Source: Candidatus Omnitrophota bacterium (GTDB taxonomy: Bacteria; Omnitrophota; Gorgyraeia; Zapsychrales; Fredricksoniimonadaceae). Taken from it: a DNA stretch of 64,000 nucleotides. Below the pieces are notes generated by a model. It worked only from the letters and a program-made list of their open reading frames with translations. It did no database searches and had not been told where the DNA came from. The position numbers were made by a program, and so were the translations under genes. Below are positions 1,149 through 20,772 of this stretch, one piece after another (positions within the stretch are counted from its first letter, which is position 1; the number at the start of each line of letters is the position of its first letter). Where the stretch lies: the NCBI GenBank assembly GCA_963828495.1, contig CAWHFJ010000011.1, positions 32,623 through 96,622 on the forward strand. The letters run 5' to 3'.

Positions 1149-2777
1149 TTATTCATCCTGGGTCATTTGATACACTTCTTCTTTGGTCGTAAGTCCCTGG
1201 GTAACTTTTTCCATACCATTATCCCGCAGGCTTTTCATGCCGGCCGCTAAAGCCGTGTGATGAATTTCTTCACTGGAAGCTTTCTTGAGAATCAAGGAAC
1301 GGATTTTCTCATCAAACTCAAGCAACTCACAAATACTGGTACGCCCTTTATAGCCGGTCATCAAACAAGCCGTACAGCCGCCACCGCCACACTCCTTACA
1401 TTTTAAACGGACCAATCGCTGGGCCAGGACACCGATAATCGAAGATGCCAGTAAAAAAGGTTCAACCCCTATATCCAAAAGACGGGTCACGGCCCCGGCC
1501 GCATTATTCGTGTGTAAAGTCGCCAACACCAGATGACCGGTTAAAGCCGCCTGTATCGCAATTTGAGAGGTCTCTGCGTCGCGGATCTCTCCGATCATAA
1601 TGACATCAGGGTCCTGTCTTAATATGGCACGCAAACCATTGGCGAATGTTAAATCCACCTTAGGGTTGACCTGCGTCTGGCGAATACCCGGCAGACGGTA
1701 TTCCACAGGGTCTTCAATCGTCACAATCGAAAGCTGCGGGTCATTGATCGTGCTGATAGCCGAATACAACGTCGTCGTCTTACCGCTTCCGGTCGGTCCT
1801 GTGACTAAAATAATCCCGTTAGGCCTCTCTAACAGACCGCGGAATTTAGTTAACATCGGCTCCTGAAAACCAATCTGCTCAAGGCCTAACCGTATATTGC
1901 CGGTATCCAAAAGCCGCAGGACAATATTTTCTCCATAAACTGTCGGCATAGATGAAACGCGGATATCGATACGTTTGTTTTCTACCCTCATTTGAATACG
2001 TCCATCCTGGGGCTTGCGCAGCTCCGAGATGTCTAACTTTGATATAATTTTGATGCGCGAGATAATCGCCGCTTGATATTGTTTCGGCGGAGAGGTCTGC
2101 AGATGCAGGACCCCATCAATTCTAAACCGGATAGCCAATGAATTTTCTTCCGGCTCCACATGAATGTCGGAAGCATCTTCACTGACGGCCTTGGTAATCA
2201 TGGAATTGACAAAAGCCACTACCGGGGCCCCTTCGATAAGATCATTGGAACGCGAAATATTAATTTCTTCCGCCTCTAGCGCCGCTTTCTGTGGAGAAAT
2301 TTCAGCATTCTTTAAAATCCCCTCCATCTCCCCTTTAGGCGCATAAAATTGATCGATCGCCTTCTTTATTTCATCCTCGGTCGCAATAGCCGGATCAATC
2401 GTCAAGCCTGTTCTTGAGGCCAGATCATCCTGTACATAAATATTAAAAACATCGACCATGGCACAGGTCAAGCTATTGCCTATTTTTAATACCGGCATGA
2501 CCAAATGTTTACGCGCCAGTTCTTCGGGGACAAGCTTGACCACCTGGGGATCAATCAGTAAATATTCCAACTCGATACGCGGGACATCCGTATGGCCGGT
2601 AATAAATGCCACCATCTTATCCTGCGGTATAAACCCGAGTCTGGGTAAAACTTTAAAAATAGAATCGCCTGTTTTTTGCTGCTCAATCTTGGCCGCTGCC
2701 AATTGAGACTGGGAAATAATCCCTTTCTCCAGCAAAAGCTCATCCATCGATTTTTTACCGTATGTATTCATGAACAA
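1149..2777 (-). CDS. GspE/PilB-family secretion ATPase (type II secretion / type IV pilus assembly)
   Basis: 542-aa ORF. It has an N-terminal T2SSE_N-like segment (LLLEKGIISQSQLAAAKIEQ), Walker A GPTGSGKTTT, an Asp box (IMIGEIRD), a His box (LVLATLHTN) and a Cys cluster (CKECGGGGCTAC). Confidence 0.9.
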   Translation of the reverse strand: MFMNTYGKKSMDELLLEKGIISQSQLAAAKIEQQKTGDSIFKVLPRLGFIPQDKMVAFITGHTDVPRIELEYLLIDPQVVKLVPEELARKHLVMPVLKIGNSLTCAMVDVFNIYVQDDLASRTGLTIDPAIATEDEIKKAIDQFYAPKGEMEGILKNAEISPQKAALEAEEINISRSNDLIEGAPVVAFVNSMITKAVSEDASDIHVEPEENSLAIRFRIDGVLHLQTSPPKQYQAAIISRIKIISKLDISELRKPQDGRIQMRVENKRIDIRVSSMPTVYGENIVLRLLDTGNIRLGLEQIGFQEPMLTKFRGLLERPNGIILVTGPTGSGKTTTLYSAISTINDPQLSIVTIEDPVEYRLPGIRQTQVNPKVDLTFANGLRAILRQDPDVIMIGEIRDAETSQIAIQAALTGHLVLATLHTNNAAGAVTRLLDIGVEPFLLASSIIGVLAQRLVRLKCKECGGGGCTACLMTGYKGRTSICELLEFDEKIRSLILKKASSEEIHHTALAAGMKSLRDNGMEKVTQGLTTKEEVYQMTQDE

Positions 2778-2786
2778 CGCTCTCTA

Positions 2787-3173
2787 TTAAACCTTAAGCA
2801 ATTCGCGGACCTTCTGGGTAAAAACCGAGACATTCAGAGGTTTGTTACAAAACGCATTGGCCCCCACCTGTTCAGCACTCTTTTTGACGGATTCCTCGGC
2901 GGAAGCGGTGAAAATAATGACAGGGATATGGCGATAACGCTTATCGGCCTTGATCAAAGCACAAGCTTTCATGCCATCCATTTTAGGCATCATCTGGTCT
3001 AAGATGATCAAATCGACCGAACTTTGCTTGATTGTAGCTAAAGCTTCCTGACCATCCCCGGCTTTAAGGACTTGAAGATCCATACCCTCAAGGACCTTCG
3101 ACATCAAAAGTACTTCCTTGATATCATCATCCACGACGAGCACCTTTTTCTTTGCCGTTTCGTTGGGTATCAT
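2787..3173 (-). CDS. Stand-alone response regulator receiver domain (CheY/PilH-like)
   Basis: ORF 2787..3215 trimmed to the ATG at 3173 (MIPNETAKKKVLVVDDD), which avoids overlap with the secretin stop at 3175. Receiver motifs are VVDDD, the acceptor Asp in LIILDQMMPKMDG, IIFTA and NKP. There is no output domain. Confidence 0.85.
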   Translation of the reverse strand: MIPNETAKKKVLVVDDDIKEVLLMSKVLEGMDLQVLKAGDGQEALATIKQSSVDLIILDQMMPKMDGMKACALIKADKRYRHIPVIIFTASAEESVKKSAEQVGANAFCNKPLNVSVFTQKVRELLKV

Positions 3174-3174
3174 A

Positions 3175-5004
3175 TTATTTCTTCCCCCCTCTGTCATCCA
3201 AAGGCACACACTCATTAACCATACTTTCGGCCTCTTTCATATACGGACTTCTGGGGACATCCTCTTCCATCTTGATGAGGGTTTTGTCCCCCGCCGCACA
3301 ATCCCCAAATTCTTTTACATAAATATAAACTATTCTGTACCAACAAAATCCGGCTTCACTCGATTGGGGGAATTCCTCTAAGATCATCCTGTAAGTTTTG
3401 ATCTGCTCCTCGCTGATGTTAAGGTTTTGGGCGGAATCTTTAGATTTATCCTCATCCAATCCTTTGGCATAATCCAGAAGCCCTTTAATCAGATTGCTGT
3501 CCTGGCCTCTTTTATTGTTATCCGACAACACAACGGGCGGCGCCATCGAGACGATATGGGGAGTGATCAACACCGTCAAGGTCCCATCGTTGACCAATGA
3601 AGAATCATGATGGAAAAACCAGCCTATAATAGGGATCGACATAATCCATGGCGTGCCGTTTTTCGTCAGGTTGGTATTCCTGCTATCCAGCCCTCCGATC
3701 ACTATCGTTTCGTTGTTTCTGACCCTGACCTCCGTCGAAGCCGAGGTCGTGGCAATATCCGGATTGCCATTGACAAGACCGATGAGCGAAGACACTTCCG
3801 GCTCGACTTTTAAAGTGATCCACCCGTCAGGAGAGACAAACGGCGTAACCTTGAGCTTGGTGCCGATATCAATATATTGCGTCTGGGTCTGGTTAACCAC
3901 ACTGCCGCCGGTCCCCCCCGCCGTAGACGTCGAGGACACATACGGATAGTGGTCTCCGATCAAAATGCTCGCTTCATGGCCATTCAAGGTGGCAATGGAC
4001 GGAGACGCTATCACGCGCGCCTTATTCTCGGTCACCAAAGCATTGATGGCCAGAACCGGAGAAAAATGTTTCCAGTTACCTAACAAACTGGATACACTCC
4101 CGTCGGAGGTGTTGCCTGTAACTTGTGTCGTGGTACCTGTACCGGAAGCCACCGTACCCGTAGAAGTACTCGTACCTGTAGTACCGGAAGAATTAGACGT
4201 ATTAAGAGCGTTTGTATTAGTCGTATTAAGGGTATTCTCAATAGTCCGGGTTGCTCCCGAGAGCAAACTCACACCCATCCCGGTAGAAGGGCTATACGTG
4301 AAATTCATGGTGGCACCGATGTCCTTAGAGTATTGTTTCGAAATATTCACGATCTTGGCATCGATCATAACCTGTAAGGGCGGCACGTCAATGCCCTTGA
4401 GATAGGACTTGATTAACTGCATATCCACAGGATTAGCGGTGACGACCAGGGCATTAGTGTCCTCATTTTCCTGAATAGTCCCCTTAAATTTGGTCTTGGC
4501 TGTGCTTAATAAAGTTTTGGCTTCTTTAATGGTCAAAAAACTTAACGGCAATGTTTCAGTCGCCTGATCAAGCTCCTCCTGGGGACAGACATAAACAATA
4601 CCCCCCTTGCGCATAAACCCGTAATTATGCACACTCAAAATCGCATTTAAAGCATCATCCAGAGAAAAATCCTTCAATTTCGCGGAAATCTTGCCTTCTA
4701 AATTTTTGGTTATAATAATATTGATGTTATAAGAATAGGCTATCGCTTTAAGAACGTCCGTCAGGTCCGCATTGATGTAATCTAAAGAAATCAATTTTGG
4801 GCCCGATACAGTGACCTTCTGGTCGGATTGTTGCGATTGCACGGAGTCCGGAGAAATAATCTCTAAAGACGACGAGCCCCCATTGGGCACAACAGGCTCA
4901 TCGGCAAATAAAGTCAACGGCCCTAAAAATAACATTAGAACCAGACTTATAATAAAATAATATCTTAATGTCCGGCGCAGAGACATCCTCCGAATAAAAG
5001 GCAT
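3175..5004 (-). CDS. Secretin (GspD/PilQ family) with a low-complexity insertion and a C-terminal extension
   Basis: ORF 3175..5049, with the start placed at ATG 5004 (MPFIRRMSLRRTLRYYFIISLV, signal-like). The N-domain shows LISLDYINADLTDVLKAIA. The secretin core shows VIASPSIATLNGHEASILIG, TKLKVTPFVSPDGWITLKVEPEVSS, IVIGGL, PIIGWFF and LTVLITPHIV. Confidence 0.85.
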   Translation of the reverse strand: MPFIRRMSLRRTLRYYFIISLVLMLFLGPLTLFADEPVVPNGGSSSLEIISPDSVQSQQSDQKVTVSGPKLISLDYINADLTDVLKAIAYSYNINIIITKNLEGKISAKLKDFSLDDALNAILSVHNYGFMRKGGIVYVCPQEELDQATETLPLSFLTIKEAKTLLSTAKTKFKGTIQENEDTNALVVTANPVDMQLIKSYLKGIDVPPLQVMIDAKIVNISKQYSKDIGATMNFTYSPSTGMGVSLLSGATRTIENTLNTTNTNALNTSNSSGTTGTSTSTGTVASGTGTTTQVTGNTSDGSVSSLLGNWKHFSPVLAINALVTENKARVIASPSIATLNGHEASILIGDHYPYVSSTSTAGGTGGSVVNQTQTQYIDIGTKLKVTPFVSPDGWITLKVEPEVSSLIGLVNGNPDIATTSASTEVRVRNNETIVIGGLDSRNTNLTKNGTPWIMSIPIIGWFFHHDSSLVNDGTLTVLITPHIVSMAPPVVLSDNNKRGQDSNLIKGLLDYAKGLDEDKSKDSAQNLNISEEQIKTYRMILEEFPQSSEAGFCWYRIVYIYVKEFGDCAAGDKTLIKMEEDVPRSPYMKEAESMVNECVPLDDRGGKK

Positions 5005-5097
5005 ATTTTTACGTATTATTATTCTATGGATATATTGATTTATAAACAAGAATAAACTGGAATATTTTAGGATAGGAATTAGGCTCGGCAGGGGAAA

Positions 5098-5595
5098 CTA
5101 TATCTCTTGCCTGGTGCCATAGACCAGGGACAGCCCAATGGCGCCGTTTAGTTGAGTCACCTCTTCTTGAACGGTCCGGATCAGGCCATTATAAGCACTG
5201 GATGATGTGATTTGAATTTTATTACCTGCGGTCACAACCCATATCGTATAACTTGAAAATCCTCCATCCAGCGATTCCTGACAGGGCAAAGTTGGAGTCA
5301 GCGTACACGAGGCAGGCAAAGTCCCTGCCGGCGCATAATTCCCGGCCGAAGCAGGATAAGGCGTTGTGCGCCAGGAGGCATTCGTTGTCCCATCAGGAGC
5401 TGTATTTCTTAAATAATACACCGCTTTGTTCGCCCCCGCTTCCGCAAGATATAACGCCTGGGTGCTACTAACCAGGGCACTGGCATTAGTGCTGTTGACC
5501 ATGACCATATTAATAAACAGCGAGGACAAAATCGTCAGGCAAATCATAAACATCAAGGTCATCAACAAAACACTGCCCCTGGATTTGTCAGGCAT
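5098..5595 (-). CDS. Minor pseudopilin-like protein (GspK/PilX-type, no Glu5)
   Basis: 165 aa. It has a short basic N-terminus followed by a hydrophobic helix (RGSVLLMTLMFMICLTILSSLF) and lacks the Glu5 of canonical pilins. It is the last gene of the pseudopilin run. Confidence 0.5.
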   Translation of the reverse strand: MPDKSRGSVLLMTLMFMICLTILSSLFINMVMVNSTNASALVSSTQALYLAEAGANKAVYYLRNTAPDGTTNASWRTTPYPASAGNYAPAGTLPASCTLTPTLPCQESLDGGFSSYTIWVVTAGNKIQITSSSAYNGLIRTVQEEVTQLNGAIGLSLVYGTRQEI

Positions 5596-5599
5596 ATGG

Positions 5600-6721
5600 C
5601 TAATTCCCTATCCCCGCATTATAAAGTTGGGACACTTCACTGGCGGACAAAACCCGGTTATAAATACGGACGTCGTCTATGGAACCGTTAAAAGGAATGG
5701 CGGTCCCGCTATTGGACATCCCTATAGTTAAGGCATGAGCGCTTATCGTAGTAATTAACGCCGCCGTAGCCGTTGCGACAGAAACCCCGTTAACATAAAA
5801 AGTCACCGCCCCCCCGGAGCCCAACGTCACGACAACATGGGTCCAGACATTATTGGGAATACTTAAAGCGCTCGATGTCACCGATTGACTGGTATTATAA
5901 CTAAATGTTAATGCAGGTCCCGCAGGGGCCAACTCTAAACCATATTCCCTGTCTGTCCCCCAGTTACCATATTCTACGATCGCCTGATTACTAGCCGCAT
6001 TGCTCGGGTTTATCCAGGCTGACAATGTTATTGTACCTGTCACTTGCAGGGAAGAGCTGCCGGAAACACTCACATACTGACTATCGGCACTATTAAAACT
6101 CATCGCCCCGTTAATGGGGTCTGAGGCGATGGCTCCTGTTGTCCACGTCGGAGAATTAAAACACATCCCTATGTTATTATTACCGCTGGACTCTGTAAGC
6201 ACCACACCCAAACACGTCCCTGATGTTGCTTCATCAAATTGCCACCAGCCCGCCAGTCCAATGGGCATATTTCTGGGCATAATATTATTTTGCAGGCGGA
6301 CACTTGTCCCGTTTTGCACAGCGGTCATATCAATGGTCACCAGACCATTGCTGCAGGTAAAAATATTAACTACACTCGCGCCCGGGGTCTGTATGCCTGT
6401 GGCCCTGGTCACTCCCCCATCGGTCACTAAATTCGAACCGCTTAACGCAAAGGTATAGGACGCCAGTCCGCTGCCTAAATTAGCGGTAAATGTTAAAGAA
6501 GTCGAGGAACATGACGTAATACTTTGGGCGTTAGACAATTCTCTGGCCATCAGGTCCATCGCCTGGGAAAGTTTGGTCCTTATAGTAATGCGATCCTGGC
6601 CGGAATCAAAAGCGCGAAAGCATGTCAGGTAGGCGAACATGATGCCGACAACCAAGAGCCCCACCAGGACCATGGCCATGAGCATTTCAAGAATGGTAAA
6701 ACCTCTTTGGGGCGTCATCAT
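5600..6721 (-). CDS. Pseudopilin with a C-terminal LamG (concanavalin-A-like lectin) domain
   Basis: 373 aa. Prepilin signal QRG|FTILEMLMAMVLVGLLVV with Glu5. The C-terminal part shows the LamG_3 pattern NVWTHVVVT...VTFYVNGV...FNGSIDDVRIYNRVLSASEV. Confidence 0.8.
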   Translation of the reverse strand: MMTPQRGFTILEMLMAMVLVGLLVVGIMFAYLTCFRAFDSGQDRITIRTKLSQAMDLMARELSNAQSITSCSSTSLTFTANLGSGLASYTFALSGSNLVTDGGVTRATGIQTPGASVVNIFTCSNGLVTIDMTAVQNGTSVRLQNNIMPRNMPIGLAGWWQFDEATSGTCLGVVLTESSGNNNIGMCFNSPTWTTGAIASDPINGAMSFNSADSQYVSVSGSSSLQVTGTITLSAWINPSNAASNQAIVEYGNWGTDREYGLELAPAGPALTFSYNTSQSVTSSALSIPNNVWTHVVVTLGSGGAVTFYVNGVSVATATAALITTISAHALTIGMSNSGTAIPFNGSIDDVRIYNRVLSASEVSQLYNAGIGN

Positions 6722-6722
6722 T

Positions 6723-7127
6723 TTAAGACGGTTGCGCCAATAACGTCGTTAAAGAAACTGAACTTTGCATCAAACCCAGCTGCCAGGAAACATACACTGT
6801 GACTTGTGTGGTCGGATTGCTATTAGTACCGCTTGCGGAAGGCAAAAAAGTCACCTGCCTGGAATAGTTCGCAAAACTTCCCGTCAGCGGGTTGAGCCCT
6901 GTAGGAAAATTTGTCGTGTTAATATTCGCATACGGAGTATTTTTAATGGTCTCCATCTCTTCCTGGGCCAAATTCAAAGCGATGGCTTGTCCCTCTATGG
7001 AACTGTCGGTATATACGCCGGCGGCCATAGCACTGACAACAGCCACCACCCCGAAAACAATCAGGACTGTGGCGAGCAAAACTTCGAGGAGAGTAAAACC
7101 TTTCTTATCCGGGGGAAAATACTTCAT
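6723..7127 (-). CDS. Minor pseudopilin (GspI/PilV-size) with a prepilin N-terminal methylation motif
   Basis: 134 aa. KKG|FTLLEVLLATVLIVFGVV with Glu5. Confidence 0.75.
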   Translation of the reverse strand: MKYFPPDKKGFTLLEVLLATVLIVFGVVAVVSAMAAGVYTDSSIEGQAIALNLAQEEMETIKNTPYANINTTNFPTGLNPLTGSFANYSRQVTFLPSASGTNSNPTTQVTVYVSWQLGLMQSSVSLTTLLAQPS

Positions 7128-7172: not shown

Positions 7173-9581
7173 TTATGAGCAGAAAACTATCGCATGCGTT
7201 GAACCAGAGGCGCTGGATGCCGGCCCTGTTCCGGCAGCATTCGTGGCTGTTACTGTAAATGTATAAGACGCCCCATAGGTCAATCCCATCACAGTCAACG
7301 GACTCCCTGTTCCTGTCCCTGTCAAAGAACCGGGATTAGATGTGGCTGTGTAGGACGTGATCGCGCTGCCACCATTTGATGCCGGCGGTGTGAAGGTAAC
7401 GGTCGCTTCTGCGGCGTCCGCGGGGCCCCCATCTATATAATATCCACACTGACTGGCGGCAACACCGGTTGGCGCTCCAGGCACGGTGTAGGGTGTGACT
7501 GAATTAGACGCGCTTGATGCTGCCGAAGTCCCTACGGAGTTTGTTGCCGTGACTGTAAATGTATACGACGTGCCATTGGTCAAGCCTGTGACAGTCCCCG
7601 GACTGCTTGTGCAAGGCTGTATTTGACCGAAACTTGACATTACCGTATAGGACGTTATCGCGCATCCGCCATCTAAGGTCGGTGGCGTAAACGTCACTGT
7701 GGCCTGTGCATTGCCTGCAGTCGCGCTACCTATGACTGGAGGCGCAGGGACACTACAGCTAGACGAACAAGTATTCTTAACAGCCACATTATGTACTAAG
7801 AAACTATCCGCATAATAGTCATGACCTCCGTCTAATTTGGGGTTATAAACAACGGAATCTTTAGCTGTTTTAAATTCAATCTTGTTAATACGCACCTTGC
7901 CGCTAAGAGTAACAAGCTCGTCGCCTATTTTAAGTTGTCCTATTTTAAGCTTAGGGTTTTCCTTCCTGGCTATTTGAGGATTAAGCGCCTTCCATCCATC
8001 GGTGGTCATAAAACTATGGCTGTCCGTCACAAAATACCGCCCGCCGTTAAAGGCGTAAACCTTCCAGTCTTGCCTGCGCCTGATCATAAGCTCAAGTAGC
8101 TTGTTATGCCCGCCTTGAGCACCTTGAAGAATATCCCCACCTTTAAGATCTTGAATTTCTACGATCCTGCCGTTGGCTAGTAAGATCTTAGTTCCTGAGA
8201 CAAAACATCCCAAATAATGGCAAATGCTGCTGCAACATTGTGAATCACTAGAACAGCCCAAGCCATTATTTACACAGGGTGTCACCGCATTAGATGCGCT
8301 TGATGCAGGGCCTGTGCCAACAGCATTTGTCGCTGTAACTGTAAATGTATATGATGTGCCATTGGTCAAGCCCGTGACCGTCTGGCTGGTGCTTAATCCC
8401 GACGATGTCAATCCGCCAGGACTGGACGTGACCGTGTAGGATGTGATCGGGCTGCCGCCATTGGATGCAGGGGCGCTGAAAGTAACGGTCGCTGACGCAT
8501 TACCTGCCGTCGCGCTCACACCGGTTGGAGCGCCCGGAACAGTATACGCAACCGGTGTGACCGCATTAGATGCGCTTGATGCAGGGCCTGTGCCTACGAC
8601 ATTCGTTGCCGTTACTGTACATGAATAAGAATCACCATTGATAAGACCGGTCACCGTCTGTGAAGTGCTTAATCCTGATGATGAGCCTACAACGTCTACC
8701 ATTAGACTCTGACATACTACAGTATAAGATGTGATCGGGCTGCCGCCATTGGATGCAGGGGCGCTGAAAGTAACGGTCGCTGACGCATTACCTGCCGTCG
8801 CGCTCACACCGGTCGGAGCGCCCGGAACAGTATAGCATACACCGCTGATACAGCTGCCTGCACATACACTGCCGCAGCTGCCGCAATTACTCGCATCTGA
8901 ACTCAACGTGCTGCAAGTGCCATTGCAACCGGTCTGCCCGCCGGCACAGCAAGTCCCATTAGTGCAAATCTGACCGGCACTACATACGGTTAAGCTCGTC
9001 CCGCAATAGCCGGTATTCGAACTGACATCCACACAAGTGCCATTGTAACAACGCTTACCGCCGGTACAGCCGCCGCAGCTGTCTGTGGCTGCGCCTGCCC
9101 CTGCCGTGTTGGCCGCACCAACATTACAGCCGCTGCCGTTGGTGACACACACAGCATTGTTGCTAATTGCAACTGAACCATTAGGGCCTATGCTCACCGA
9201 ACCATTGCCTGTCGGGCCTTTAGAATAAAGCACATAATATTTCCCGTTGGCAGAGACCTGATAACCATATTCCGTGCTATTGCCAGCGATGAAAGGATCG
9301 TACAAAACACTCCTAATAACCTTAGGGGACGCTTCGGTTAAAGTAGAAGCCCCCAGAGAAGTGCTTGAATTAGGATAGGTATTGTTGTTATTTAAATAGT
9401 AGGCTGTGACCGCCGCCTGCATGGTCTTAAGTTCAGCCTGGGCCTGGGAGAGTTTCCCCGAGTTCTGCATACCTTTATACATCGGCAGCCCGACGCTGAT
9501 CAAAATAGCCGCAACGGCAAAAATAACAAACAACTCTAATATGGTCTGGGATTTCTTATTAAGGAAGGCGGAAAAATTCAT
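7173..9581 (-). CDS. Giant pseudopilin fusion: GspG-like domain + Cys-rich region + 2 FN3 + Cys knot + Hint (BIL) domain + 2 FN3
   Basis: Single 802-aa ORF.
- aa 1-144 form a GspG-like pseudopilin: KKS|QTILELFVIFAVAAILISVGLP with Glu5, AELKTMQAAVTAYYLNNNNTYP, and LYDPF...YGYQV...YYVLYSKGPTGNG.
- aa 145-250 carry about 24 Cys.
- FN3 units begin PGAPTGVSATAGNASATVTFSAPASNGGSPITSYTV and end SYTFTVTATNAVGTGPASSASN.
- The Hint domain is aa 459-598. Confidence 0.85.
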   Translation of the reverse strand: MNFSAFLNKKSQTILELFVIFAVAAILISVGLPMYKGMQNSGKLSQAQAELKTMQAAVTAYYLNNNNTYPNSSTSLGASTLTEASPKVIRSVLYDPFIAGNSTEYGYQVSANGKYYVLYSKGPTGNGSVSIGPNGSVAISNNAVCVTNGSGCNVGAANTAGAGAATDSCGGCTGGKRCYNGTCVDVSSNTGYCGTSLTVCSAGQICTNGTCCAGGQTGCNGTCSTLSSDASNCGSCGSVCAGSCISGVCYTVPGAPTGVSATAGNASATVTFSAPASNGGSPITSYTVVCQSLMVDVVGSSSGLSTSQTVTGLINGDSYSCTVTATNVVGTGPASSASNAVTPVAYTVPGAPTGVSATAGNASATVTFSAPASNGGSPITSYTVTSSPGGLTSSGLSTSQTVTGLTNGTSYTFTVTATNAVGTGPASSASNAVTPCVNNGLGCSSDSQCCSSICHYLGCFVSGTKILLANGRIVEIQDLKGGDILQGAQGGHNKLLELMIRRRQDWKVYAFNGGRYFVTDSHSFMTTDGWKALNPQIARKENPKLKIGQLKIGDELVTLSGKVRINKIEFKTAKDSVVYNPKLDGGHDYYADSFLVHNVAVKNTCSSSCSVPAPPVIGSATAGNAQATVTFTPPTLDGGCAITSYTVMSSFGQIQPCTSSPGTVTGLTNGTSYTFTVTATNSVGTSAASSASNSVTPYTVPGAPTGVAASQCGYYIDGGPADAAEATVTFTPPASNGGSAITSYTATSNPGSLTGTGTGSPLTVMGLTYGASYTFTVTATNAAGTGPASSASGSTHAIVFCS
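7788..8207 (-). other. Hint / bacterial intein-like (BIL) domain, 140 aa, no endonuclease
   Basis: aa 459-598: CFVSGTKILLANGRIVEIQDL (intein block A with Cys1), VTDSHSF (TxxH block B), and VVYNPKLDGGHDYYADSFLVHN (blocks F/G ending His-Asn). The residue after Asn is Val (HN|VAVKNTC). Hand counts give ~38% GC on the lines at 7801 and 7861, against 60% on the flanking FN3 line at 8461. Confidence 0.85.
8441..8834 (-). repeat. Intragenic tandem FN3-unit repeat with near-identical DNA
   Basis: 8441..8546 and 8729..8834 are 105/106 identical; the only difference is ccggtTggag versus ccggtCggag. The offset is 288 nt, or 96 codons. A second pair, 8281..8318 and 8557..8594, has 1 mismatch at an offset of 276 nt. 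Confidence 0.9.
8832..9149 (-). other. Cysteine-rich region (aa 145-250) of the 802-aa protein
   Basis: CVTNGSGCNVG...DSCGGCTGGKRCYNGTCVDVSSNTGYCGTSLTVCSAGQICTNGTCCAGGQTGCNGTCSTLSSDASNCGSCGSVCAGSCISGVC. These are repeated short C-x-G-x-C spacings. No family name can be assigned by eye. Confidence 0.6.
9150..9581 (-). other. GspG-like pseudopilin module of the 802-aa protein (aa 1-144)
   Basis: See the motifs listed for the parent CDS. The class III signal is unusual because Ser, not Gly, sits at position -1 and Gln at +1 (NKKS|QTILE). Confidence 0.7.
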
Positions 9582-9630
9582 GATTTAAAATTCTCGATGA
9601 CCTTAGGCCGTGTAAAATAGTATATCACCG

Positions 9631-10032
9631 CTATAGAAAATACGCCATCAATAATCCAGCGTATAATAACAGCGATCCAGGTAAAGGTCTGTAAAGAAAA
9701 CATCGAGCCGTATTGACGATACAGCGGCTCTGAAAAAAAAGCTGTGCGCTATAGGTGTGCCGTAAAGGAAGGGTGATGATACAATAGTACGCAAAAACCA
9801 CCAAAATTTTTCGAAACGCCTCGGAGAGACAAAGAACGCCTATCCCGCAGGCTAATCCCAGCAGCCTGAATATATAAGAACCGATAAAACGTATCTTAAG
9901 AAAAGGCCCTGCCCACTCATGATTGACTTGGGCATAAAAAGCATACGCGGGCATGTGGCGCAGTAAGTCCAGGGACGTGACAATCAGTATCACTCCGAAT
10001 ATGATGACGCCCAGGGGCCTCTTGTGTTTCAT
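9631..10032 (-). CDS. Hypothetical small membrane protein
   Basis: ORF 9631..10152 trimmed to MKHKRPLGVIIFGVILIVTSLDLL. Its ATG overlaps the recO stop as ATGA. It has several hydrophobic helices and no recognisable family. Confidence 0.45.
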   Translation of the reverse strand: MKHKRPLGVIIFGVILIVTSLDLLRHMPAYAFYAQVNHEWAGPFLKIRFIGSYIFRLLGLACGIGVLCLSEAFRKILVVFAYYCIITLPLRHTYSAQLFFQSRCIVNTARCFLYRPLPGSLLLYAGLLMAYFL

Positions 10033-10762
10033 GACAAAAATCTCGTCGAACGCAACTGGCGCTCCAGATGGAACACCAAAAAATGGTTCAATATGTATTT
10101 CAGCTCTTTCTTCACAAACGGGGCTAACCCTAAACGAATCGCGTCCCCCCATGCGTTCTTTTGAATATGCAGAATAGAGGCCACCGCCCCCGGAGAAATC
10201 GGCGTCGCCTCTCCCACAGGGTCCTGCATGCCGGACACAAAAGGCCTCCTAAACGCAAACTGAAACGCGGCCTTGCCGCCACCTGTTGGCTACAGCGCAC
10301 ACAAGCCTCCAAATGCGGCTGAAAACCTGACAATGATAAAATCTTGATCTGAAAAGTCTGGACTAATTTGCCCACATCCCGGGTCGTTTGCAGACTTTTT
10401 AAAAAAGCCCGGGTCAACTCATAAATCTCCAGGTTCTCTTCTTCCGGCGGCATCAGCGCATCAATCAACTCCGAGGCATAGCTGGCAGCTGTCATACACT
10501 CTAAATCCCGACGAAAACCCGCAAAAAAATCTTTCATGTCGCAATGGCTGACTAAATGCAGATCGCTGTTGCGGTATTGGTAATAAACGATATCATTGAC
10601 GGAGAATTTATCGACGCTGGAGCCGAATTTTTGAGGGTCGCGGCGGATGCCTTTTAAAACACCTTTGACCTTGCCGAAATCCCGTGTAAAAAAGGTGGCA
10701 ATGCGGCTGGTCTCACGGAAATCAAAGGTCTTGAGTACAATGCCTTCAGTTTTTACAATCAT
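10029..10762 (-). CDS. recO: DNA repair protein RecO (apparent 1-nt frameshift near 10225)
   Basis: The N-terminus MIVKTEGIVLKTFDFRETSRIATFFTRDFGKVKGVLKG and the CxxC...CPAC zinc motif lie in ORF 10130..10762. The conserved C-terminus (DPVGEATPISPGAVASILHIQKNAW...LERQLRSTRFL) continues in ORF 10029..10238 in another frame, directly after CPAC. Confidence 0.8.
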
Positions 10763-10800: not shown

Positions 10801-11622
10801 ATGTATAAAGATTTTTATAAGCTCAAAGAACTGCCCTTTAACATCACCTCCGACCCGGATTTCTTTTTTTCTCCATCGCGCCACGAAGAGGCCTTCAATC
10901 ATCTGATTTACGGCATCAACTCACGTAAAGGCATCATTGTGATTACCGGTGAGATCGGCACGGGCAAAACAACACTTTGCCGCACCCTGCTTAACCGTCT
11001 GGACAAAACAGTTAAAACCGCGCTCATCTTAAACCCCAGTTTTTCAGATTTACAATTGCTGCAGATGATCATCAATGATCTAGATATCCGCTATACTAAA
11101 AAAAACAAACTTGATCTGGTGGGCGCCATCACCCTGTTTTTAATCGAACAATCCGCCAAAGGTAATAATGTGGCCGTCATCATCGACGAATGCCAAAATC
11201 TGAACATCCGCCAATTAGAACAGATACGGCTTTTATCCAATCTGGAAACCGAAAAAGAAAAACTGCTGCAAATCATTTTGGTCGGCCAGCCGGAGTTGGT
11301 CGAAAAACTCAAAAACCCCGCCCTGCGCCAGCTGACCCAGCGGGTGACCGTGCGTTACCACATTCTTCCCCTGCAAAAAAAAGAGGTTGAAGATTATATC
11401 AAACACCGTCTAAGGATCGCCGGGGCTGATAGCAAACTGCATTTTACCCCGCAAGCCATTGAAACTATCTACGCCATCTCACAAGGCACACCACGGGTCA
11501 TCAATATCCTCTGCGACCGCGCTTTGCTCGCCGGATTCACGCGGGAAACATTTACTATCGACCATTCCATGATCCACGAAAGCGCCAAGGAGACGCAATA
11601 CGCTTATGAGTATCATTCATGA
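10801..11622 (+). CDS. ExeA/GspA-like AAA ATPase (secretin-assembly accessory family)
   Basis: 273 aa. LPFNITSDPDFFFSPSRHEEAFNHLIYGI, Walker A GEIGTGKTTL, Walker B VAVIIDECQNL, and ILVGQPEL. This is the typical ExeA / MshM (AAA_22) layout. There is no C-terminal peptidoglycan-binding domain. Confidence 0.85.
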   Translation: MYKDFYKLKELPFNITSDPDFFFSPSRHEEAFNHLIYGINSRKGIIVITGEIGTGKTTLCRTLLNRLDKTVKTALILNPSFSDLQLLQMIINDLDIRYTKKNKLDLVGAITLFLIEQSAKGNNVAVIIDECQNLNIRQLEQIRLLSNLETEKEKLLQIILVGQPELVEKLKNPALRQLTQRVTVRYHILPLQKKEVEDYIKHRLRIAGADSKLHFTPQAIETIYAISQGTPRVINILCDRALLAGFTRETFTIDHSMIHESAKETQYAYEYHS

Positions 11623-12199
11623 TGCCCTTAAAAAAGTCCAGCAAGGACGGACCCCTAAGGCCGACCCAACGCCAATCGGGCAGAACCTGCAAAGCAGACA
11701 GCTACAAAAACTCGCTGCGCAAAAATCCTCTATTGTCAAAATGATCACTTCTCTGCTGGCCATGCTTTGTGCCATGGCCATTACCGTCGTGGTTTTCAGC
11801 CTCATCTTTCAACAATTTCAAAAAAATATGCCCAAAGCCCAAAAATGGGCCAAAGATATTCCCAAAGTCAAAAAATTGGCCATGACATCATTGTCTACAA
11901 TTGATCCATAAAATACCACTACCTGATTTTAAAACCGGGGCCTCCCAAGAGCCCAAACCCTTAGCCCAGCTTATCGTCCCTTCCCTAGCCGCCTCTAATA
12001 CAACTCAACCCCACCCCTCCTTAACGCTGAACATCCAGGGGGTCATGGTGCCGATGATCATGACAATCTCGTTTTGATCAATGACCAGGTTTACCGGGAA
12101 GGCGATGAAATCAACGGCGCTAAAATCACAAAAATCAATTTAAACGCCATCACCATCATCAACAACGGCAAAGAAGAAACAATCAGCGTAGGGAAATAA
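11606..12199 (+). CDS. GspB/ExeB-like protein (two apparent frameshifts, near 11908 and 12050)
   Basis: The N-terminus MSIIHDALKKVQQG, followed by a TM helix, resembles GspB. Own translation of downstream frames gives ...SLTLNIQGVM and then GADDHDNLVLINDQVYREGDEINGAKITKINLNAITIINNGKEETISVGK*, a GspB C-terminal-domain pattern. The stop is at 12197..12199. Confidence 0.55.
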
Positions 12200-18650: not shown

Positions 18651-19136
18651 TTACTTTCCAATCCTAACAATCTCCGCTTTGATTTGCCCCGCTTCAATAC
18701 GGATAAGGCCATAAGAGAAAAATTGGGCGCGATTCAGATCATTAGGACTGCCCGGATTAAAGTACAACACACAACCGATTTGTTCCTTAAACGCTCGATG
18801 CGAATGACCGAAAATGACCACATCTATCTTATCATTTTTAAAAGAAGCCATGGCATTTTTTAACGCTTCCAGGCTTCTGCCTATATGGCCGTGGGTCACC
18901 CCAATTTTAAAATTATCGCAGACAATGATATCTTTTAAAGGTAATTCTTTTTTTAATTCCTCTGTGTCCTGGTTGCCCTGCACGGCCCTAAGGGGCGCTA
19001 AGGCTTTAAGCTGTTTGAATGCCGGCATGTCAGAAATATCGCCCGCGTGAATAATGAGATCCACTGTTTTAAAGCGTTCAATCACCTGAGGAGGGATGTT
19101 TAAGGAATGCGTATCTGCAAGTATACCGAGGATCAT
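18651..19136 (-). CDS. YfcE/MJ0936-family metallophosphoesterase
   Basis: MILGILADTHS, HAGDI, GNQD, and VIFGHSH. The start at 19136 overlaps the upstream stop by 4 nt. Confidence 0.85.
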   Translation of the reverse strand: MILGILADTHSLNIPPQVIERFKTVDLIIHAGDISDMPAFKQLKALAPLRAVQGNQDTEELKKELPLKDIIVCDNFKIGVTHGHIGRSLEALKNAMASFKNDKIDVVIFGHSHRAFKEQIGCVLYFNPGSPNDLNRAQFFSYGLIRIEAGQIKAEIVRIGK

Positions 19137-20772
19137 CTGACAATTATAGGTTCGTCGAATAAATGCATCAAGCAATTAAGTTGGTCTTCATCCCAAACCC
19201 ACAATTTCTCTTGCAAGGCCCGTACTCTGGCATTCTCATCCAAGCCGCTTAAAGAGACAATGACGCTGCGCGCCGGTCTGGGGTCTAATTTTTTAATTTC
19301 TTCAAGAATGCCGTTAAGGTCATTTTCCTGCACCGGGTCTTTCTTGAGGACCACCAGCCACAGTCCGTCCTGACCTTGAGCGGACACCGCATCAAAATAA
19401 TTGCCGGCACCCGTACGCAATTTTAAGACCGCAATGTCCTTGAAAGCCGACAATTTATACCGGCGGCCGGAGAGCACAAAAGACTCATTATCAAATTTAT
19501 GCATCAAATCCGCCATGCGTACGGACAAGTCCTTGCGGGCGACCATACCAAAATCATTGAACGCTTTATTGATTTCTTCCTTAAACAGCTTGCGCGAGCG
19601 TCCTGCCTCAAGATCAATGACTCTAAGACGCCGATGATAAACATATTTGATCCAATAACTGAATAATTTATCCTTAATATGATAATAATTGCCGTTACGC
19701 TCGACAATATTGGCTTCCAACAAAGCATTGATGCGCCCCAGGGCCACTGCCGGCTTTAATTGCAGGCCTTCACATAAATCACTGCTTTTATGTTTTCCCC
19801 CCGCCATGGCGCACAGCAAAGCTACGACAACACCCGCGGATTTTCCCACGGTCAATGTGTTCATCTGCAATTCAAAATGACGGCTGATAACTCCCCATGG
19901 ATTAAAAATGACATTTTCAATCGCCTGAGTGACAATCGGCGCGTAGATTTCCGGTTGGGTATAAACACCGCTTAAACAAATTAACTCCTGACACAATAAA
20001 TTAATATACAAAGGGTGTCCGCCGGTAAAATCCGCTATAAAATTCTTTAAATGCCGACCGATTTTAACAGATTTAAGATTATGGTCCATTAAACCCTGCG
20101 CCTCGCTGAAATTAAAAGGCTCGACACCAATGACCTCAAAGTTGCCGAATAACAAAGATAATTTTTCGGACAGAATAGCTTGGGTCTGCTGAGGGAAGGA
20201 ACTGGCCACAATATACAGGCAATTTTTCTGGGTCATGATACGATGCCCCAGGTGGGCAAACACTTCAGGAATATTAAAATTCTCCAAACATCCAAATTCA
20301 TCAAGAATTAAAACCACGAATTTGCCGGTTTCCTGACTAAAGACCTCGGGCAATGATAAAAGAAGGTGATAGGCTTCCAAAATTTTACCCTGGGCCACCA
20401 GTGTCTCTGTCTCTTGCACCAAAGACACCGTACGGGGAATGACGGTTATGGGCCTGCGACACATAAACATTTCAAATCTTCCTGCAGGGGCAAATTTTCT
20501 TTTTTGAGGAAATTATAAAGCAAACTTTTGGTGAATTGGCCGGCAAAATAATTAAAATCGCGGTTCTCTAAATCCAAATAAATAAAAAAAACATCCGGCT
20601 CCTCCAAGTCCATCATCATTCTTTGCAGGAGAGATGTTTTACCGATATGCCGCACCCCCAAAAGGGCTACGTTTTGACGGTAACCTTCCTTGAGTCCCAA
20701 CACGCGTTTTTTTAAAATTTCCAAAACGCTTCTACGGCCGTAAAAATTATGGTCGAAATCAATTAAATTCAT
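19133..20772 (-). CDS. ATPase of the Arch_ATPase/DUF234 type (apparent frameshift near 20460)
   Basis: ORF 20446..20772 carries FYGRRSVLEIL and the P-loop LGVRHIGKTSLL. ORF 19133..20470 continues with VLILDEFGCLENF (Walker B), a wHTH-like segment and FSYWIKYVY (DUF234-like). Confidence 0.65.

Follow-up and report, generated by a model that had tools for sequence, protein, structure and literature searches.

The stretch analysed here, 64,000 nucleotides of a Candidatus Omnitrophota contig (CAWHFJ010000011.1) and referred to below as the window, carries at 7173..9581 on its reverse strand a gene whose product is probably a modular type IV pilin, a tip or otherwise rare subunit of an Omnitrophota type IV pilus or type II secretion system (T2SS)-like machine, bearing a putatively self-processing Hint domain of the bacterial intein-like (BIL) type. 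The open reading frame (ORF) begins with ATG and runs without interruption for 802 codons plus the stop. From its N-terminus the protein comprises a GspG-like pilin module (aa 1-161), a stalk with 16 cysteines (aa 162-262), two FN3 domains, a seven-cysteine linker in which the Hint domain is embedded, and two further FN3 domains. This domain architecture had been proposed in an initial annotation made from the sequence alone, and it is right. Unless marked (+), all window features described below lie on the reverse strand.

The pilin module and its C-terminal extension

The N-terminal 161 residues form a complete pilin module and belong to the family of ordinary 138-185-residue pilins found in Omnitrophota type IVa pilus (T4aP) operons. 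Over their full length they align with stand-alone pilins of 149-185 residues, all of which end in ...CVTNG.GC; one of these, from a Candidatus Omnitrophica metagenome-assembled genome (MAG), bears the annotation type II secretion system protein. The N-terminus, MNFSAFLNKKS followed by QTILELFVIFAVAAILISVGLP, aligns with relatives that read KKA/FTILEL, where the slash marks the processing site. From this alignment residues 1-11 (9549..9581) are predicted to be a class-III leader peptide, which the prepilin peptidase would remove by cutting between S11 and Q12; this would place Glu16, invariant in the family alignment, at position +5. The mature module, aa 12-161 (9099..9548), consists of the hydrophobic alpha-1 helix and a GspG/PulG-like head that ends in the C145-C152 loop, CVTNGSGC.

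A profile of the pilin family matched pilins in the PDB with E-values down to 1e-13. PulG (5WDA, E=1.5e-10) was the sole match to cover the whole head, and its alignment passes through the YP, DPF/DPW and S.GP.G motifs. In the AlphaFold2 (AF2) model a 59-residue helix (7-65) is accompanied by five strands (106-147), the head having pLDDT values of 70-82, and the structures found at the top by Foldseek were EpsG (4LW9) and PulG (5O2Y/1T92), with probabilities of 0.82-0.94 and weak E-values (0.05-0.3). Profile and fold searches thus both recover the pilin-like N-terminal domain that the initial annotation had described, and the GspG-like motifs that it listed, with the glutamate at +5, are present; its end point at residue 144 is too early, the module extending to residue ~152-161. 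The whole protein scores 31.1 bits (E=2e-7) against TIGR01710, for which the cut-off is 88.85, and 19.2 bits (E=1.3e-3) against PF08334 (T2SSG), for which it is 21. On these scores it is best regarded as a homologue of GspG but not as an equivalog.

A search for homologues in Omnitrophota/PVC MAGs had been suggested, and the family is indeed present in named Omnitrophota genomes; among the named genomes of a GTDB genome scan it is essentially confined to Candidatus Omnitrophota. In one locus (L010) both major-pilin positions of a canonical PilB-PilC-pilins-minor pilins-PilMNO operon are taken by members of this family. The machine is therefore considered to be a type IV pilus whose pilins are of a GspG-like family, and not a classical T2SS.

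The pilin module is followed by the Cys-rich stalk (aa 162-262; 8796..9098), which shows weak Stig1 / MXAN_6577-like similarity. Sixteen cysteines were counted in aa 169-249, or 18 when the pilin loop is included, in place of the approximately 24 first reported, and the same stalk is seen in a 1327-residue homologue (P0002), a 218-residue protein of locus L008 and protein P0347. All four FN3 domains originally called are found by Pfam fn3, which matches the protein in four stretches (E=1.2e-40; 138 bits against a cut-off of 25). The first two, at ~aa 263-347 (8541..8795; boundaries approximate, with internal DNA repeats) and ~aa 348-435 (8277..8540; best fn3 stretch 351-431), precede the linker, and the third (~aa 613-699; 7485..7745) and the fourth with the C-terminus (~aa 700-802; 7176..7484) follow it. 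The N-terminal part of the linker, aa 436-458 (8208..8276), has the pattern C-x6-C-x5-CC-x3-C-HYLG and forms the N-extein flank of the Hint; the C-terminal part, aa 599-612 (7746..7787), reads VAVKNT-C-SSS-C-SVP, with Val599 at +1 and a lysine at +4. What had been taken for a six-cysteine knot is made up of five linker cysteines and the catalytic first cysteine of the Hint. The real module is a seven-cysteine linker split 5+2 by the Hint, and aa 562-592 of P0002 show its pattern, C-x6/7-C-x5-CC-x3-C continued by C-x3-C, without a break.

That the ORF is genuine is supported by independent assemblies. Locus L084 (ENA ERZ25039473), obtained from another sample with another assembler, contains the same operon and the same 2409-nt, 802-residue ORF, differing from that of the window by 46 substitutions and no indels (98.1% nucleotide identity). 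P0002, which is 59% identical to the 802-residue protein, was found on three contigs from three samples with the modules in the same order (pilin, Cys-rich region, FN3, seven-cysteine linker with Hint, FN3), and shorter orthologues of 218 (L008) and 329 residues (P0347) consist of the pilin and the Cys-rich stalk only. The junction between pilin and tail is therefore genuine. P0002 itself lies in a syntenic neighbourhood with genes for SH3, M50, DHQ synthase, an ExeA-like ATPase, RecO, the pilin, minor pilins, a secretin, a response regulator, an ATPase and a platform protein. The FN3 domains are encoded in part by DNA repeats of up to 97% identity over 116 nt, so that a collapsed repeat within the ORF was conceivable, and two homopolymer-length differences from another assembly lie just upstream. 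With the ORF free of indels in L084, the architecture recurring on the three further contigs and shorter pilin-stalk orthologues in existence, a collapsed repeat is nevertheless ruled out, and it is scarcely credible that two separate genes, a short one for a pilin and one for an adhesin, have been fused by chimeric assembly or by an overlooked stop codon; this explanation was rejected, and the single uninterrupted ORF of the initial annotation stands. Searches with the full-length protein were swamped by FN3 proteins, P0002 being the sole informative match, and a search with aa 1-262 returned two matches (P0347 and a Cys-rich protein) without listing the query itself, its sensitivity being poor.

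Ten of the 17 amino-acid differences between the L084 and window proteins fall within aa 98-164, that is in the outer part of the head and at the very start of the stalk, and in the pilin module nine codon differences are nonsynonymous and five synonymous. The pattern of substitution in the head is reminiscent of diversifying selection on pilin surfaces.

The Hint domain, its relatives and its chemistry

The Hint domain spans aa 459-598 (7788..8207) and is exactly 140 residues long. Its catalytic positions are Cys459 (position 1), Thr519-x-x-His522 (block B), Asp584/His587 (block F) and His597-Asn598 (block G). In an alignment of 31 Hint homologues C1, T61-x-x-H64 and H139-N140, which correspond to C459, T519/H522 and H597/N598, are invariant or nearly so. 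Scans with the single sequence gave Hom_end_hint (6e-5) and weak PT-HINT, Vint and Hint_2 matches at aa 459-592; the score for PF07591 was 17.2-23.5 bits, under the gathering cut-off of 27.7, and only two FN3 domains lie downstream. In a search of the PDB with the Hint profile the best match was BIL2 (6Y75/6TMM; E=9e-16 for 6Y75), then the Clostridium thermocellum BIL (CthBIL, 2LWY; 5e-11), with true inteins after these. The AF2 model has pLDDT >90 across the domain, and with it Foldseek gave 6Y75 (8e-11) and 2LWY (1e-8) ahead of inteins and hedgehog, with 57 PDB Hint structures at E<=1e-3. The 140-residue Hint of the initial annotation is therefore upheld.

Splicing by class-1 inteins requires Cys, Ser or Thr at +1. 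This residue is Val599 in the 802-residue protein, Ala in P0002 and A/V/P/R/S/I/N/K in the pilin-Hint proteins described below, and in the wider subfamily it is lysine in 140 of the 183 Hint domains of the best 136 new representatives. Although the terminal His-Asn is kept, a canonical intein was thus ruled out by the missing +1 nucleophile, and BIL-type chemistry is to be expected. Published BILs are Hint domains with Cys1, a C-terminal His-Asn and no +1 nucleophile that are found in variable secreted bacterial proteins (PMC7765530, PMC7664689). Judged by its motifs, the domain in the seven-cysteine linker agrees with the description of A-type BILs and is predicted to be catalytically intact.

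The combination of pilin and Hint is not confined to the long proteins. Directly after the 1327-residue gene of a related locus there are two genes for pilins of ~300 residues (L003:4119-5027 and 5104-6003, also in L001 and L002) in which the Hint is situated between ...YYVISS.GPNG.WG and the last ~30 residues, ...DDICVTNGTGC; in the modelled head the insertion point separates strand 2 from strand 3. This layout of a Hint within the head recurs in about 25 clusters, formed at 90% identity (proteins P0122-P0148), with up to five paralogues on one 45.8-kb contig, and when the Hint is removed in silico the ~300-residue pilins become collinear with the Hint-less pilins. Within the 64-kb window neither such a gene nor a second Hint was found by tblastn and motif scan. 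At least eight further proteins of pilin, TadE or Flp type, with class-III N-termini, bear the same Hint, which in the N_methyl, TadE and Flp proteins is terminal: N_methyl exceeds the Pfam cut-off in P0231, P0310, P0342 and P0165, as does TadE in P0220, while sequence motifs give P0244, which also has LamG and Stig1 matches, a GFSLVEI N-terminus, and P0245 and P0155 a Flp-like GQSIIEY N-terminus. The search for co-occurrence of pilin and Hint that the initial annotation had recommended was therefore productive; the association is recurrent and has arisen in several architectures. The GTDB scan gave no Hint-bearing copy of the pilin family among the species representatives returned.

The clade to which the Hint belongs is large, an exhaustive profile search yielding 593 representatives at E<=1e-30, mostly large non-pilin proteins. 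In many members the Hint is at the extreme C-terminus. Others have tandem Hints joined by a single lysine (HN-K-CF), with up to six copies (P0215) and in proteins of up to 4119 residues (P0211-P0222 and others).

If the Hint is active, an N-S acyl shift at Gly458-Cys459 would generate a thioester and Asn598 would cyclise, with an outcome as in other BILs: N- and/or C-terminal cleavage, or religation mediated by an amine (the alpha-amino group or a lysine). In published BILs cleavage at the N- and C-terminal sides predominates, but ligation is possible even where nucleophilic side chains are lacking (PMC7664689); BIL2 makes an isopeptide bond to lysine and hands its N-extein on to other proteins (PMC8616854). 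For the protein in the window we lean towards self-excision that would restore the seven-cysteine linker, or a linker that would be held together by disulfides across the 5+2 cysteines. Self-excision is favoured because the Hint interrupts modules that are found intact elsewhere and because the C-terminal flanks are under purifying selection. Among 22 pilin-Hint proteins there is hardly any variation in the C-extein motif DDICVTNGTGC, and between L084 and the window there are no nonsynonymous changes in the 177 codons of Hint and linker. Given the many C-terminal Hints, purely N-terminal cleavage in the manner of hedgehog is presumably also part of the clade's repertoire.

A cysteine is conserved five residues before Cys1 of the Hint. 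Related Omnitrophota loci encode, between the genes for Cys-rich pilins and that for the secretin, a DsbD-thioredoxin fusion (L085) and MsrB/MsrA (L085, L008), at L085:9119-11341 and L008:7556-8554, which suggests a dedicated redox upkeep of the disulfide-rich pilins. Taken together with the conserved cysteine, these genes make redox control of the Hint plausible, if speculative.

A bolder proposal, drawn by analogy with BIL2 and in our view distinctly unlikely, is that the Hint activates the C-terminal end of the N-extein, borne by the pilus, as a thioester and passes it to an amine, so that its function would be conjugation and not mere trimming. The acceptor may be Lys602 of the C-extein (+4), a neighbouring subunit, or a surface protein of a host or prey, and the redox state may act as the trigger through the cysteine that precedes Cys1. 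Were this the case it would amount to enzyme-free, ATP-free isopeptide conjugation like that of Tetrahymena BIL2, with pili that are cross-linked or covalently adhesive at their tips (a 'harpoon'), and in the ~300-residue relatives to a new post-translational step in pilin maturation.

Place in the pilus and neighbouring genes

In the pathway we consider most likely the protein would be inserted into the inner membrane by the Sec/signal recognition particle route, and cut by the prepilin peptidase at S11/Q12. Its alpha-1 helix would then bring it into the filament alongside the adjacent minor pilins, most likely at the tip or sparsely along the filament. Past the secretin the tail, like beads on a string, would be displayed as an adhesin. 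Modular pilins are regarded as exposed at the tip (PMC8179133). The placement at the tip, or as a rare subunit, follows from this view of modular pilins, from the relatives, which pair extended pilins with ordinary 138-150-residue pilins of the same family, and from the steric implausibility of 640-residue tails along a filament. It draws on relatives because tblastn and a motif scan of the 64-kb window recovered neither a small major pilin nor a second GspG-like one.

Several points weigh against this assignment. The missing small major pilin is one, and the 802-residue protein is the sole GspG-like product of its operon; no prepilin peptidase was seen among the ~25 window ORFs scanned, a subset of all those present. 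The predicted processing site, KKS/QTILE against KKA/FTILE in relatives, is atypical in having Ser at -1 and Gln at +1. For the 802-residue protein taken alone the matches to pilin and Hint families of Pfam and NCBIfam are all under the curated cut-offs and Pfam N_methyl gives none, so that of the family matches anticipated in the initial annotation only the four fn3 stretches exceed their threshold. The Cys-rich region is modelled by AF2 with such low confidence (pLDDT 30-55) as to be uninterpretable. Finally, Cys459 would find itself in an oxidising compartment amid many other cysteines, where it might be locked in a disulfide; the Hint may splice, cleave or conjugate, and the case made here is a computational one throughout.

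Being the only GspG-like gene of the operon and of the window, and standing ahead of the I/J/K-like minor pilins, the gene could be taken to encode the major, bulk subunit, in which case an appendage would project from every subunit of a bottle-brush filament, as the initial annotation had entertained. We consider this very improbable. A tail of 640 residues on each subunit would far exceed the secretin lumen, going by the known dimensions of type IV pili and secretins, and we know of no precedent for a ~640-residue appendage on each subunit of a filament that crosses a secretin. In relatives ordinary pilins of the same family, of 138-150 or ~300 residues, adjoin the extended ones; it is in the extended forms only that the +1 residue of the pilin is Q or H instead of F; and major pilin genes are often unlinked from the genes of the machinery. 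Nor would processing by the Hint ease passage through the secretin, as had been implied, since the Hint lies beyond the Cys-rich stalk and two FN3 domains and its cleavage would bring no steric benefit. The possibility that the protein is no filament subunit at all, its class-III signal and pilin-like head serving only to anchor or export a surface protein, such as a substrate or anchor of the secretin system, whose distal part is freed into the medium by the Hint, as proposed for PT-HINT and toxins, is likewise improbable. The S/Q processing site, the weak PT-HINT similarity and the occurrence of the Hint subfamily mostly in large non-pilin secreted proteins would all be in keeping with an anchor. 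The head is conserved along its whole length with bona fide T4aP pilins, however, and so is the glutamate at +5; the gene is part of an operon with minor pilins, a secretin and an ATPase, and the part set free would comprise only two FN3 domains, neither an effector nor a toxin being among them.

It is also possible, though rather unlikely, that the protein is an otherwise ordinary modular pilin and the Hint a selfish, intein-like mobile element of pilin-family genes, with self-ligation of the BIL type and no adaptive role. Several paralogous copies per locus, conserved C-exteins and the insertion of the Hint into folded modules of which intact forms are known (the pilin head and the seven-cysteine linker) are what such an element would leave behind. 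The Hints of P0002 and the neighbouring pilin P0122 are 69% identical and their pilin parts 45%, a difference that is suggestive only of mobility, as it may merely mean that the Hint evolves more slowly. Against such an element, the Hint is a 140-residue mini-domain that has neither a homing endonuclease nor a +1 nucleophile. In the wider subfamily Hints often come at the extreme C-terminus (1-7 residues past the HN) or in tandem arrays (HN-K-CF), positions that leave splicing nothing to join, and purifying selection on the Hint is strong. The modular pilin at the tip or as a rare subunit, with a Hint that would process it, is the reading we retain, and the early idea of a displayed, self-processing, adhesin-like appendage would fit the evidence.

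The genes downstream, on the same strand, bear out the secretion or pilus operon that had been recognised at the outset. They encode a PilV / GspI / ComGE-like minor pilin of 134 residues (6723..7127), a modular minor pilin of 373 residues (5600..6721) with N_methyl (25.9 bits) and Laminin_G_3, a concanavalin-like lectin domain (E=5.7e-31), and a PilX_N / GspK-like minor pilin of 165 residues (5098..5595; weak matches). The 373-residue protein also has weak TafC similarity. There follow a PilQ / GspD-like secretin (3175..5049; Secretin E=2e-43, PilQ 4e-61), whose true start may be downstream of the TTG that opens its ORF, a stand-alone response-regulator receiver protein (2787..3215) that occupies the same slot between secretin and ATPase in L003, L084, L085 and L008, and the assembly ATPase (1149..2777; T2SSE with a MshEN N-domain, E=9e-136). 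The window ends before the gene for the platform protein (T2SSF), which was therefore seen in two syntenic loci alone, L003 and L085.

Upstream, the stop codon of a gene for a 151-residue membrane protein with four transmembrane segments (9578..10033) overlaps the pilin start codon (ATGA). The same overlap is present in L084 and L001, where the 151-residue gene is itself coupled to recO, which in the window lies at 10029-10762. The gene at 7173..9581 is therefore the first pilus gene, as initially stated, but not the first of its transcription unit. In comparison with L084 the window has a T8 in place of a T9 run near 9740 and one A fewer near 10225, which put frameshifts into the 151-residue gene and recO respectively. 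Errors of sequencing or assembly in the window probably account for both, the alternative being real pseudogenes. The upstream 151- and 178-residue proteins matched no Pfam family, and a scan for promoters and terminators around the pilin gene gave nothing above the expectation from shuffled sequence. Divergent from the recO-pilin unit are genes for an ExeA/MshM-like AAA_22 ATPase (10801-11622 (+)), which is kept in relatives, and a small membrane protein (11606-11911 (+)). Elsewhere in the window a 445-residue ORF (19133-20470) matched no Pfam family at E<=1e-5, and ten other ORFs scanned are diderm housekeeping genes, among them BamA, LpxC-FabZ and DnaB.

Relation to known systems

The initial annotation took as its premise that pilins have 120-200 residues and that adhesive modules are carried by separate proteins. 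This is outdated, modular pilins being documented in more than 1,200 proteins and 264 architectures, with FN3 (IPR003961) among the 15 commonest modules (Raynaud et al, 2021; PMC8179133). The same dataset lists, without comment, one N_methyl - PT-HINT protein ('IPR012902 - PF07591'). With its four fn3 stretches, Hint and Cys-rich region the 802-residue protein falls under that definition of a modular pilin. It resembles the Streptococcus sanguinis PilB-vWA and PilC-lectin pilins and CofB of enterotoxigenic Escherichia coli in having added modules, and the 373-residue minor pilin of the window, with N_methyl and LamG, has the PilC architecture. It differs from them in carrying five kinds of added module in one chain, including a Hint of the self-processing type. 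With GspG (PulG/EpsG) and the T4a major pilins it shares the class-III signal with its glutamate at +5, the long alpha-1 helix, the small beta head and the YP, DPF/DPW and S.GP.G motifs. Unlike in GspG, the cleavage site is S/Q instead of G/F, the head ends in a C-x6-C loop and is followed by a C-terminal extension of 640 residues, and relatives of the family sit in T4aP-type operons with PilMNO.

The Hint has its closest counterparts in the BILs of C. thermocellum (2LWY) and of the Tetrahymena BUBL locus (BIL2; 6Y75/6TMM), which have the same Cys1, TxxH and His-Asn, likewise lack a +1 nucleophile and are found in variable secreted multidomain hosts. Identity with these is ~23-28%, and the host here is a type IV pilin, with the domain lying inside the pilin head in relatives. 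The lysine at +1 in 140/183 domains and the tandem arrays set the wider subfamily apart from classical BILs, and neither was found described in the limited BIL literature consulted. Pretoxin-HINT (PF07591) is also a Hint of secreted multidomain proteins, for which release of the C-terminal part by autoproteolysis has been proposed; the similarity is weak in the 802-residue protein and strong in some family members (P0310, 95 bits). In the window, in contrast, the score is below the family cut-off and it is two FN3 domains, not a toxin, that follow the Hint. Class-1 inteins have the same fold, blocks A, B, F and G, and insertion into a folded module of which a Hint-less form exists elsewhere. 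They differ from the present Hint, which has Val at +1 (A/P/R/K in relatives), no homing endonuclease and, as host, an exported variable protein and not a conserved cytoplasmic enzyme.

Modular pilins, and BIL domains in variable secreted proteins, are thus already known. New are the recurrent BIL-type Hint in type IV pilins, including within the head, the five-module architecture, and the clade with Lys(+1) and tandem Hints. No account of these three features, or of any Hint, BIL or intein in a pilin, was found in the searchable literature, in line with the initial annotation, which knew of no pilin-FN3-Hint architecture.

Known steps in the maturation of type IV pilins include removal of the leader, N-methylation and glycosylation, and we know of no case in which a pilin is processed by a self-catalysed Hint. 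The significance of the arrangement depends on the Hint being active and on its product. The clade of 593 representatives at E<=1e-30, with its unusual lysine at +1 and its tandem arrays, considerably enlarges the world of BILs, and the 140-residue mini-Hints, working in an exported, disulfide-rich setting, are compact substrates that may serve extracytoplasmic protein engineering. In Omnitrophota T4aP are already viewed as organelles of attachment to a host (PMC10066038). If the Hint is active, it would provide a phylum thought to live attached to hosts with a new route by which the subunits of its pili could be matured, split, released or covalently coupled.

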